A stretch of DNA of 64,000 bases from Pocillopora damicornis (Eukaryota): contig NW_020847681.1 of assembly GCF_003704095.1 (NCBI RefSeq), positions 310,001-374,000 of the forward strand. The letters run 5' to 3'. The notes beneath the pieces are model-generated. The model had not been told where the DNA came from, made no database searches, and saw nothing but the letters and a program-made list of their open reading frames with translations. Position 1 is the first letter of the stretch. Every line of letters begins with the position of its first letter. A program made the translations under genes and the position numbers. This document shows positions 37,772-40,297 of this stretch, piece by piece.

Positions 37772-38350
37772 CCTGATAATATTCCATTCGACCTGTTGAT
37801 TATTGGACTGTTAAACTCAAGAAAGACAAGATACTTGGTCAGTCTCTCAAGCACCGCCTTCTGGGGAAAGTTCATTAACATCTTCCTCCTCTGTCCAACA
37901 TTCATTCACTACAAGAAGTAAAACAACATTGAAAAAAATGAGCAGGACTTTTTTGCATTCACTACACTTTAACATCAGATTGATGATTGGCTTGATATCA
38001 TGAGTTATGTACGTGAGGGTACTAATACACTGATCATTTTTGATGACTACACCATTTTTAGGGATGTGTTGAAGAGAACAGGTGAATTGTTGAATTTGGC
38101 GTTCAGTGCAAGACATGAGGGAATCAGTGTTTGGGTTCTTTCACAGCAGGTGGTGAGCATTGTGAATGCAATTAGAGAGAACATCACTTCATTTGTTCTC
38201 TTCCATACATTGGCTAACAATATGAATAATATATTTGAGAGTTATGCAGGTAAATTGATGAATGATGAAAAGAAAAAAAATATTGCAAAGCTCAAGAGTG
38301 AGGATAATTCACATCTCATCTTCACTCTTCATCCTTTAAAATGGAAATAA
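37772..38350 (+). pseudogene. FtsK/A32-like genome packaging ATPase
   Basis: Degenerate Walker A LLIIGLLNSRKT, Walker B LIIFDD, ARHEGISVWVLSQQ and IREN. In frame with ORF 38000-38350, with two in-frame stops upstream. Confidence 0.8.
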
Positions 38351-40297
38351 CTGAAGATGAACAACAAGCTGTTACTGATGTTACCAGCCATCAGTGAGGC
38401 TAAATCCACAAGTGATTCAGATCATCAAGAGCAACTAACTGTTCTTGTTACAAGCGGAAAGCGAAGGAAATAATTGGAGAAGATCTCACTCTCTGAGAAA
38501 GATGTTGAGAAGTACTTCAAGAGATAAGAGACCTCATTATCAGCATGGACTTGTGACGGTAACGTGGAGGTGGTCCTCAAACTCTCATGCGAGGCATTGG
38601 CTCATTCCCTCCCTGTTGATGAAGGTGAACTTCTCAAGGACTTGAATAAAAACTTCATGGTTAAGAAAGAACTTAGTATGATTGTCTACAGATTTAGTTT
38701 GAACTATGGAAAGTACATGGCAATCACAGTGCTGTTCTTTTCGCTATCAATAATGTTGAATATGAGACACATCCCCCAGAAGAACTTGATAAGAACTTGG
38801 CAAGTAATTGATTAAGAACTTGTGTGAGAACTTTAAAATTATCTCACAAACTCTAAAGTGGATGATAGGGAAGTCAAGACTGAAGAAGCACTAGTGACTT
38901 CAGCAGATAAGAATAAGAAGAAACCAAAGTTAGACCCTGGGAGAGTTGCAGCTGGCTAAAGACTTACTGAATGCAACAGGAAAGTTAGAGAAGTGAACAA
39001 GCAAAACTCAGGCAAGAAGGTCACTGAAAGGAAGGTTGAAATATGGTCACCAGTGACACTTGGTCATATACTTTCAGTAGCAAGGATAGTTCTTTCGTTG
39101 GTTGGACTGTATTTCAAAAGAGAAGAGATGATGGCTCTTATTAAAAAATCCACCAATAGAAACTGAGTCAGAGACTGAAAAACTTCCTAATGCCCCTCTG
39201 CTGAGTAAAAGACTAGTCACAAGAGTAAGACCAATGGATTGAAAATTATTATCTTAAATAAAATAGCGTCTTGTAACAATAAACTCATGAAAACAGTGAC
39301 AAGTTGGAGATCAGTCACAGGAGTAGGACCAATGGATTAAAAATTGTTATCTTAAATAAGTTAATGTCTGATAATAATAAGCTCACGAAAACAGTAACTG
39401 ATGTAAAACAGAGCAGGTAGTGACTAATGAAATACAGTTATGGTGGGAATTGCAGCTGGATATGGATGGATCTTGAAGAGGGTGATCAAAAAGGTGATGA
39501 CATCTGATCTGAGTTCTAATGCCATAGACTATGTGAAGTTCACAGTGACCTTCGCAACATTCTCTTGCAATAAAACTATCAAAAATAATAAAATTTTGCC
39601 TAGTTATTAAATATGGTTAGTGGACTCATGACAGTTGCTCCAGAGTTTATGGTATTCTGCTTGATTATGGGGGGATTTTCACTTTTTATCTCAAGTGTTG
39701 TGGAAGAAGCGCAGCTCCAGTTGGAAAGAAGAAGGAAGGTTTAGATAATGTAAGTGATAATTATCAATGCAAATGCAAAAACAATACTTAGGAGGTATAA
39801 AGTGGTTAGTGGATTCGCAACAGCTTATAGGACTCTGGCGGGATTTTCATTCTTCTTGAGTGAGATGGAGTGTAACTCCAAACACTATGAATGATAAATG
39901 AAATGGTGAGCATAGCAATAATGGTTGGTGAAGCTATCATCAATGCAACTGCATTTGTTGGTGGAAGTTATCTGGCAAAATATTTCACTGGAGATCACAA
40001 TAAAGCTGATGAAGACAAGAAGCAACATGATCTTGTTGTTTTATAAGAAGTATCAAGCTAGTTGATTGGATTGCCACAAATGACAGAATCAAAGAGCAGT
40101 TGAATTAAAGTTTTGCCGGTACCACCTATCCTTTGAAGCTTTATAACAGATTTCACTAAGATCATCATCTGCTTTTGGGGGTTAAACCACAGTTTTCAGA
40201 CTTCTATAAGGCAAGAGTTCAACTAAAACCAGCTGAGATGATCTACGTTGGAGCTGCAGCTTTCACTGAGGAATTGGTTGCTAGTTATCTCTTGTAA
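38341..40297 (+). pseudogene. Cluster of ~6 tightly packed small ORFs, most with hydrophobic segments (unknown function)
   Basis: ~38341-38815 (..SEKDVEKYFKR..LLKDLNKNFMVKKEL..YGKYMAI); 38858-39242 (DPGRVAAG..ILSVARIVLSLVGLYFKRE); 39364-39610 (MSDNNKLTKTVTD..VGIAAGYGWILKRV..YVKFTV); two short MVSG../VVSG.. ORFs at ~39613 and ~39802; 39903-40297 (MVSIAIMVGEAIINATAFVGGSYLAKY..EMIYVGAAAF). Confidence 0.55.

Follow-up and report, generated by a model that had tools for sequence, protein, structure and literature searches.

A conserved block of four small genes behind the packaging ATPase of a decayed coral polinton, likely of Polinton-3_NV type

The 64-kb stretch of Pocillopora damicornis DNA analysed here (referred to throughout as the window) carries a cluster of short reading frames between a packaging ATPase gene and an integrase gene, and an initial annotation had proposed that these were a viral membrane, entry or egress module. 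The locus raises the question of what these genes are, to which lineage of elements they belong and what their products might do.

The gene block and its decay

A six-frame reading of the window, combined with tblastn searches using the open genes of related loci, gave the order PolB end, A32 ATPase, A, B, C, G1, G2, D and integrase start on the + strand. The features are as follows.

36645..37769, +, PolB (family B DNA polymerase, polinton-type), broken, C-terminal half (tblastn with relatives' PolB; ORF end)
37766..38350, +, A32-like packaging ATPase with two in-frame stops (49% identical to an intact relative across 194 aa; Pox_A32)
38341..38815, +, gene A, frameshift near the start and two stops (168-191 aa in open relatives)
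~38860..39240, +, gene B, one stop and a shifted end, start approximate (128-154 aa in relatives)
39210..39398, tandem duplication covering the end of B and the start of C, period 98 bp, 82% identical, family D20
39364..39610, +, gene C, frameshifted (71-78 aa in relatives)
39613..39744, +, G1, 43 aa, open, with a single helix of strong hydrophobicity
39790..39885, +, G2, second tandem copy of the G1 ORF, decayed, no ATG, limits approximate
39903..40297, +, gene D, one frameshift (between 40040 and 40055) and two stops (138-141 aa in relatives)
40331..40764, +, rve integrase, N-terminal part, broken and truncated
34978..43133, direct repeat (34978-37773 against 40315-43133, 79-84% identical) containing the integrase start, gene Z (minus strand) and the PolB end

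The annotation had described about six tightly packed, intronless ORFs. The run of short coding stretches was indeed intronless and on one strand, but it was not made up of six intact ORFs: comparison with open relatives resolved it into four conserved genes (A-D), each broken, and one variable slot, G, which is duplicated in the window. All four peptides quoted in the annotation were found in the six-frame reading, though two of them, IAIMVGEA... and IYVGAAAF, which had been assigned to separate ORFs, are the two ends of the single gene D. Stops or frameshifts interrupt the ATPase, A-D and the integrase, and among the ORFs of the block only G1 is open. Introns were considered as a source of the breaks and ruled out, as the relatives have contiguous ORFs.

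Two short ORFs had also been called mutual paralogues. G1 and G2 gave a DNA alignment score of 38, which none of 1000 shuffles reached, and a protein score of 31, which 8 of 1000 reached; the two are weakly supported as paralogues, and G2 has no ATG. The A-rich start context that had been noted was found in the window ahead of A and G1, as TAAA(A)ATG; relatives also have A-rich starts, but these vary. Because of this variation, a poxvirus-like TAAATG promoter was rejected as a general rule.

The end of D is also present at 33145-33354, directly after an N gap. Four 100-N assembly gaps lie in the window (26070-26169, 31630-31729, 33045-33144 and 63892-63991); since that at 33045 joins a PolB piece to the D end, this junction is uncertain. 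No match to the capsid gene was found in the 64-kb window and no long inverted repeat in its 30-50 kb region, the copy being deleted and old. Judged from its sequence, the window copy is a dead fossil, an old tandem array of a deleted endogenous polinton. Contigs from all four public runs, whose library type is unrecorded, covered most of the stretch with few differences, no listed piece spanning the whole, and the insertion is therefore present in other individuals. From RNA runs came only short contig pieces of low depth, dispersed along the stretch; they say neither that it is expressed nor that it is silent.

Gene Z occurs twice in the window on the minus strand (36114-36412 and 41364-41763), broken in both copies, and as a longer stretch with a hydrophobic middle at L066:2530-2967. 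It had no match in Pfam. It may resemble PW, a conserved Maverick accessory, or GasderminX.

Lineage of the element

PolB was recognised by the match of the broken window copies to the PolB of relatives in tblastn; PolB motifs are present in the relatives' proteins, but their DNA_pol_B_2 score is only weak (E 0.009). The integrase of the intact relative L046 passed the cut-off for PF00665 (E 8e-8) and the window copy shows 53-60% identity. The ATPase was over the cut-off for PF04665 (Pox_A32; Pfam E 1.7e-7). In the N-terminal region of one relative's PolB (L038:2900-3637) a segment resembling endonuclease VII was observed, just under the cut-off (E 1.5e-4).

The capsid was approached through relatives. 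A capsid-like gene is linked to the block, with 52 matches in G000. It had no match in Pfam or the PDB, and its AlphaFold model was poor (pLDDT 34), leaving the fold unsupported by the model. Compared by eye with the Polinton-3_NV capsid (PMC4028283, Figure S3), it matches lengthwise, and in one segment 23 of 39 residues of the L057 capsid are identical to Polinton-3_NV, again counted by eye. A PLV-type capsid was thus seen in linked relatives and not in the window, and where a capsid of Maverick type (groups 1 and 2) was looked for, the linked capsid was instead of the Polinton-3_NV type. A search for the PF00770 protease returned nothing in G000, nor in the controls, and no complete element was read.

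In the available parts of PMC4028283 (Table S1), Polinton-3_NV of Nematostella vectensis is listed with a capsid and an ATPase, with no penton or protease identified. Two anemone polintons have been described as possible chimeras with PLV capsids (PMC4642659), Polinton-3_NV and N1A_NV were placed beside the PgVV group (PMC11296320), and the accessible text of these two papers puts the Polinton-3_NV-type capsid outside Maverick groups 1 and 2. In the portion of a 2026 preprint that could be consulted, octocoral, hydrozoan and bivalve ATPases fall near the aquintoviruses. The window element shares with Polinton-3_NV (PMC4028283, PMC4642659, PMC11296320) the capsid, by eye and through its relatives, PolB, the rve integrase and the A32 ATPase, and no protease was seen in the loci read; it differs in being a decayed deletion derivative without a capsid gene, and an A-D block is not mentioned for Polinton-3_NV in the available parts of those papers. 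The sequence comparisons suggest that it is likely of Polinton-3_NV type. The annotation's poorly described cnidarian dsDNA virus lineage is sharpened in this way, the linked capsid leading to a type already published.

Adintoviruses, i.e. Maverick groups 1 and 2 (PMC8502044), also have PolB, an integrase and an ATPase, but have a different capsid type, typically accompanied, as far as the available text goes, by an adenain protease and a penton. Stony-coral polintoviruses (PMC11131425) are likewise endogenous elements of corals, whose copy number is sometimes very high, and frequently encode proteins annotated without a function; in the accessible part of that paper the A-D proteins, their order and a membrane role are undescribed, the word 'membrane' occurring 0 times in the main text. 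A wider literature search found no description of the A-D block, which could be covered by Repbase reports, subscription papers or closed preprint supplements (holin-like orthogroups built partly from coral elements).

Conservation in open relatives

The relatives surveyed were 29 metagenome loci picked through D, which come from few samples and are not independent. Upstream of D, C was present in 25 of the 29 (one not found, three too short), B in 17 (three not found, nine too short) and A in 7 (four not found, 18 too short); the integrase lay downstream of D in 23 (two not found, four too short). Many ATPase 'not found' entries in this survey reflect short flanks and that count was not relied on. 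The DNA search of G000 gave at least 30 matches and the search with D at least 32. From G000, 15 loci were fetched and one duplicate place was dropped; among the remaining 14, C was found in 9, B in 8, A in 5, the ATPase in 6 and the integrase in 12. The conserved synteny with ATPase and integrase that the annotation had called for is therefore borne out by syntenic homologues.

Two layouts were seen. In the first, PolB-ATPase-A..D-integrase (the window and L038), the block follows the polymerase; in the second, capsid-ATPase-A..D-integrase faces an inverted PolB (L057, and partly L044, L046 and L055). The order A-D is thus common to two sub-lineages with PolB in opposite orientation, and in L044 and L057 the series MCP-ATPase-A-B-C-D-integrase is all on one strand. 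The capsid gene of L065, another G000 locus, is on the opposite strand. Two extra small genes, E and F, lie between B and C in the second sub-lineage (L055:1132-1592, L045 and L063): E has a hydrophobic N-terminus and two CxxC motifs (dN/dS ~0.4), and F has one hydrophobic helix and an acidic coil. The slots around C (E, F and G) change fast.

Selection was estimated by the Nei-Gojobori method on open relatives, with saturated or near-identical pairs unused and with a bias arising from the choice of open frames. On this basis dN/dS was 0.20-0.36 for A (3 of 3 pairs), 0.30 for B (one usable pair of three), 0.18-0.22 for D (three usable of 21) and 0.13-0.34 for the integrase (3 of 6 pairs). For C the median was 0.41 over 22 usable pairs of 55, with 17 below 0.5 and none at or above 1. 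As the proteins are 58-76% identical while synonymous sites saturate, this is clear evidence of constraint despite the open-frame bias, and the annotation's expectation of purifying selection holds among open relatives. By this evidence from alignments, the constraint is one that worked on replicating elements, not on the window copy.

Beyond these loci, the D profile drew 1,780 database proteins and the C profile 330 clusters at 50% identity; among the 120 D relatives listed, the only named one was a hypothetical protein of Stylophora pistillata. A distant D (35% identical) comes with its own set of 47 relatives. One distant homologue, L059 (961-1383 and neighbours), sits in a different neighbourhood without C or the integrase, and one of its relatives, on a 5-kb contig, is filed under a bacterial name, probably a binning error. 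A single exact D sequence (P0066) was observed on 367 contigs, the longest of 5.4 Mb. This points to a large-scale multiplication in some host not long ago, and the lineage appears to have been active somewhere in the recent past.

The block could be non-structural, with membrane proteins directed at the host cell or at a large virus infecting it at the same time, as in abortive infection or organelle targeting. The fast-changing slots around C and the position of the block against the integrase are consistent with this, as are the defence roles proposed for polisuvirus pore proteins in the available part of bioRxiv 10.64898/2026.10.13.758929. We consider it improbable, as the order A-D is constant across sub-lineages with saturated synonymous sites and the four genes follow capsid and ATPase in L044 and L057.

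Protein anatomy and possible function

The annotation had placed a hydrophobic helix in most of the ORFs. This held for D and G1; B and C are marginal. A, probably a soluble and helical protein, is acidic in the two relatives measured and has amphipathic helices. B has a basic N-terminal stretch (net +8 to +11), one hydrophobic helix with a Kyte-Doolittle (KD) value of 1.0-1.9 and a low-complexity tail; the two helices of C, rich in Gly and Ala, lie at KD 0.9-1.3, under the classical transmembrane level. With a peak of only 1.3 for C and 1.0-1.9 for B, these two are marginal transmembrane candidates. D has a hydrophobic helix at each end (KD 1.65-1.83) with long charged helices between. G1 reaches KD 2.29, and in relatives its slot is filled by other tiny hydrophobic ORFs with at best weak similarity to it (four of the six compared were informative).

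Hydrophobic helices alone are unsurprising, since 195 of 679 stop-free frames of the window, taken as a control, reach KD 1.4, and it is their conservation that matters. Of 102 close relatives of D, 101 are hydrophobic at each end and none in the middle; in 46 distant relatives the two ends are hydrophobic in 40 and 26, the C-terminal helix being at KD 1.4 in those 26 of 46. This pattern bears on whether A-D might be capsid cement or core proteins with hydrophobic helices that pack on protein and not on lipid. The marginal hydrophobicity of B and C, the amphipathic helices of A and the strongly basic B would suit such proteins, but D and G have uncharged 19-residue segments of KD 1.7-2.3, conserved at both ends of D, and we regard the idea as very unlikely.

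That A-D could not be assigned to named families was confirmed: they gave no significant sequence match in Pfam (including no PLA2 domain), in PHROGs (best E 0.01-0.05, with no PRD1-like or other named protein) or in PDB profile searches. The ESM Atlas returned only hypothetical proteins for D and A, under 0.9, and phage records a single chance match (E 0.8). Four scans of IMG/VR, with D, the D alignment, the ATPase and the capsid, found no viral contig. The AlphaFold model of D (pLDDT 56.5; central helices of moderate confidence, ends <50) had no match in BFVD or the PDB by Foldseek.

Two further genes were observed near the capsid gene. Gene Y (L044:1390-1776 minus; L066:403-699; L072:2600-3358), on the strand opposite the capsid gene, encodes a long coiled coil with a Gly/Ala-rich hydrophobic tail and has a weak match to a tape-measure PHROG (E 4e-4). 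Gene X (L044:234-1325, 363 aa) is linked to Y and the capsid gene in several loci, has no family match and is a candidate minor capsid protein.

Tectiviruses offer the closest analogy. The layout taken for comparison is that of P6, P20 and P22 in PRD1, together with the roles of individual PRD1 proteins. The tectivirus inner membrane is described as protein-rich and used for genome delivery (PMC5795452, in part). The likeness extends to the double jelly-roll lineage, protein-primed polymerase, packaging ATPase and small hydrophobic genes nearby; the differences are that A-D have no sequence similarity to tectivirus proteins and that this is an integrating eukaryotic element, for which a membrane is only predicted. 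Our favoured reading, to which we give a probability of about 0.5, is that A-D may serve in the assembly and entry of a virion that contains lipid. It is favoured because of the tectivirus-like layout (ATPase, small hydrophobic genes and the tape-measure-like Y), and because Polinton-3_NV, for which neither a protease nor a penton is listed, must mature and enter in some other way. The individual roles, drawn from the analogy without sequence homology, would be as follows. A would assist the packaging ATPase as a soluble cofactor; B would hold DNA by its basic N-terminus and a membrane by its one helix; C, folded as a small helical hairpin, would either shape the membrane or open a pore; D, with long helices separating its hydrophobic ends, would bridge membranes or breach them at entry; and G would be a fast-changing extra membrane peptide.

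Three of the four small genes directly behind the ATPase carry hydrophobic helices. Against the favoured reading stand the tie of D to the integrase, at least as tight as to the capsid genes, the placing of the L065 capsid gene on the other strand, the C-terminal helix of D at KD 1.4 in no more than 26 of 46 distant relatives, the lack of homology, the marginal B and C, the distant D outside the block and the absence of viral IMG/VR contigs. The synteny and selection results favour the membrane, entry or egress role proposed in the annotation, the role itself remaining a proposal.

A particle with no virion membrane was also considered, in which C and G would be viroporin- or holin-like exit proteins and D a membrane-lytic entry protein in place of PLA2X or lipases. 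Accessory genes with membrane activity are known from other polintons and from PLVs (PMC8502044; PMC4642659), adintoviruses having PLA2X, GasderminX and Cupiennin in the available text of PMC8502044, and holin-like orthogroups are reported in polisuviruses in the accessible part of bioRxiv 10.64898/2026.10.13.758929. D gave weak Rz-like spanin scores in PHROGs (E 0.03-0.1), which may reflect its helix-plus-coil layout only, but C matched no holin family there, and this explanation accounts neither for the fixed place of A after the ATPase nor for the basic-patch-plus-helix design of B. Among the adintovirus accessories, the comparison with A-D covered PLA2X, through the Pfam search that gave no PLA2 domain. 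Overall this explanation seems rather unlikely.

Taken further, the lipid-particle reading leads to a proposal that we offer tentatively, and again by analogy: the Polinton-3_NV lineage might be an animal-infecting, integrating virus with a PRD1-style internal membrane replacing the protease-and-penton route, with A as packaging cofactor, B, C and G as membrane and portal proteins, D as a two-anchor entry protein and Y as tape measure.

The window thus preserves a member of a known, little-studied cnidarian polinton lineage with a conserved and apparently uncharacterised gene block, whose membrane role would be one undescribed for animal polintons. Polintons are thought to link the membrane-containing tectiviruses to adenoviruses, virophages and giant viruses. 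According to the available part of a 2026 preprint, no polinton particle has been seen. A conserved block of putative membrane proteins in an animal lineage with no recognised protease offers four proteins open to testing, and singles out a lineage that may have kept an inner membrane.
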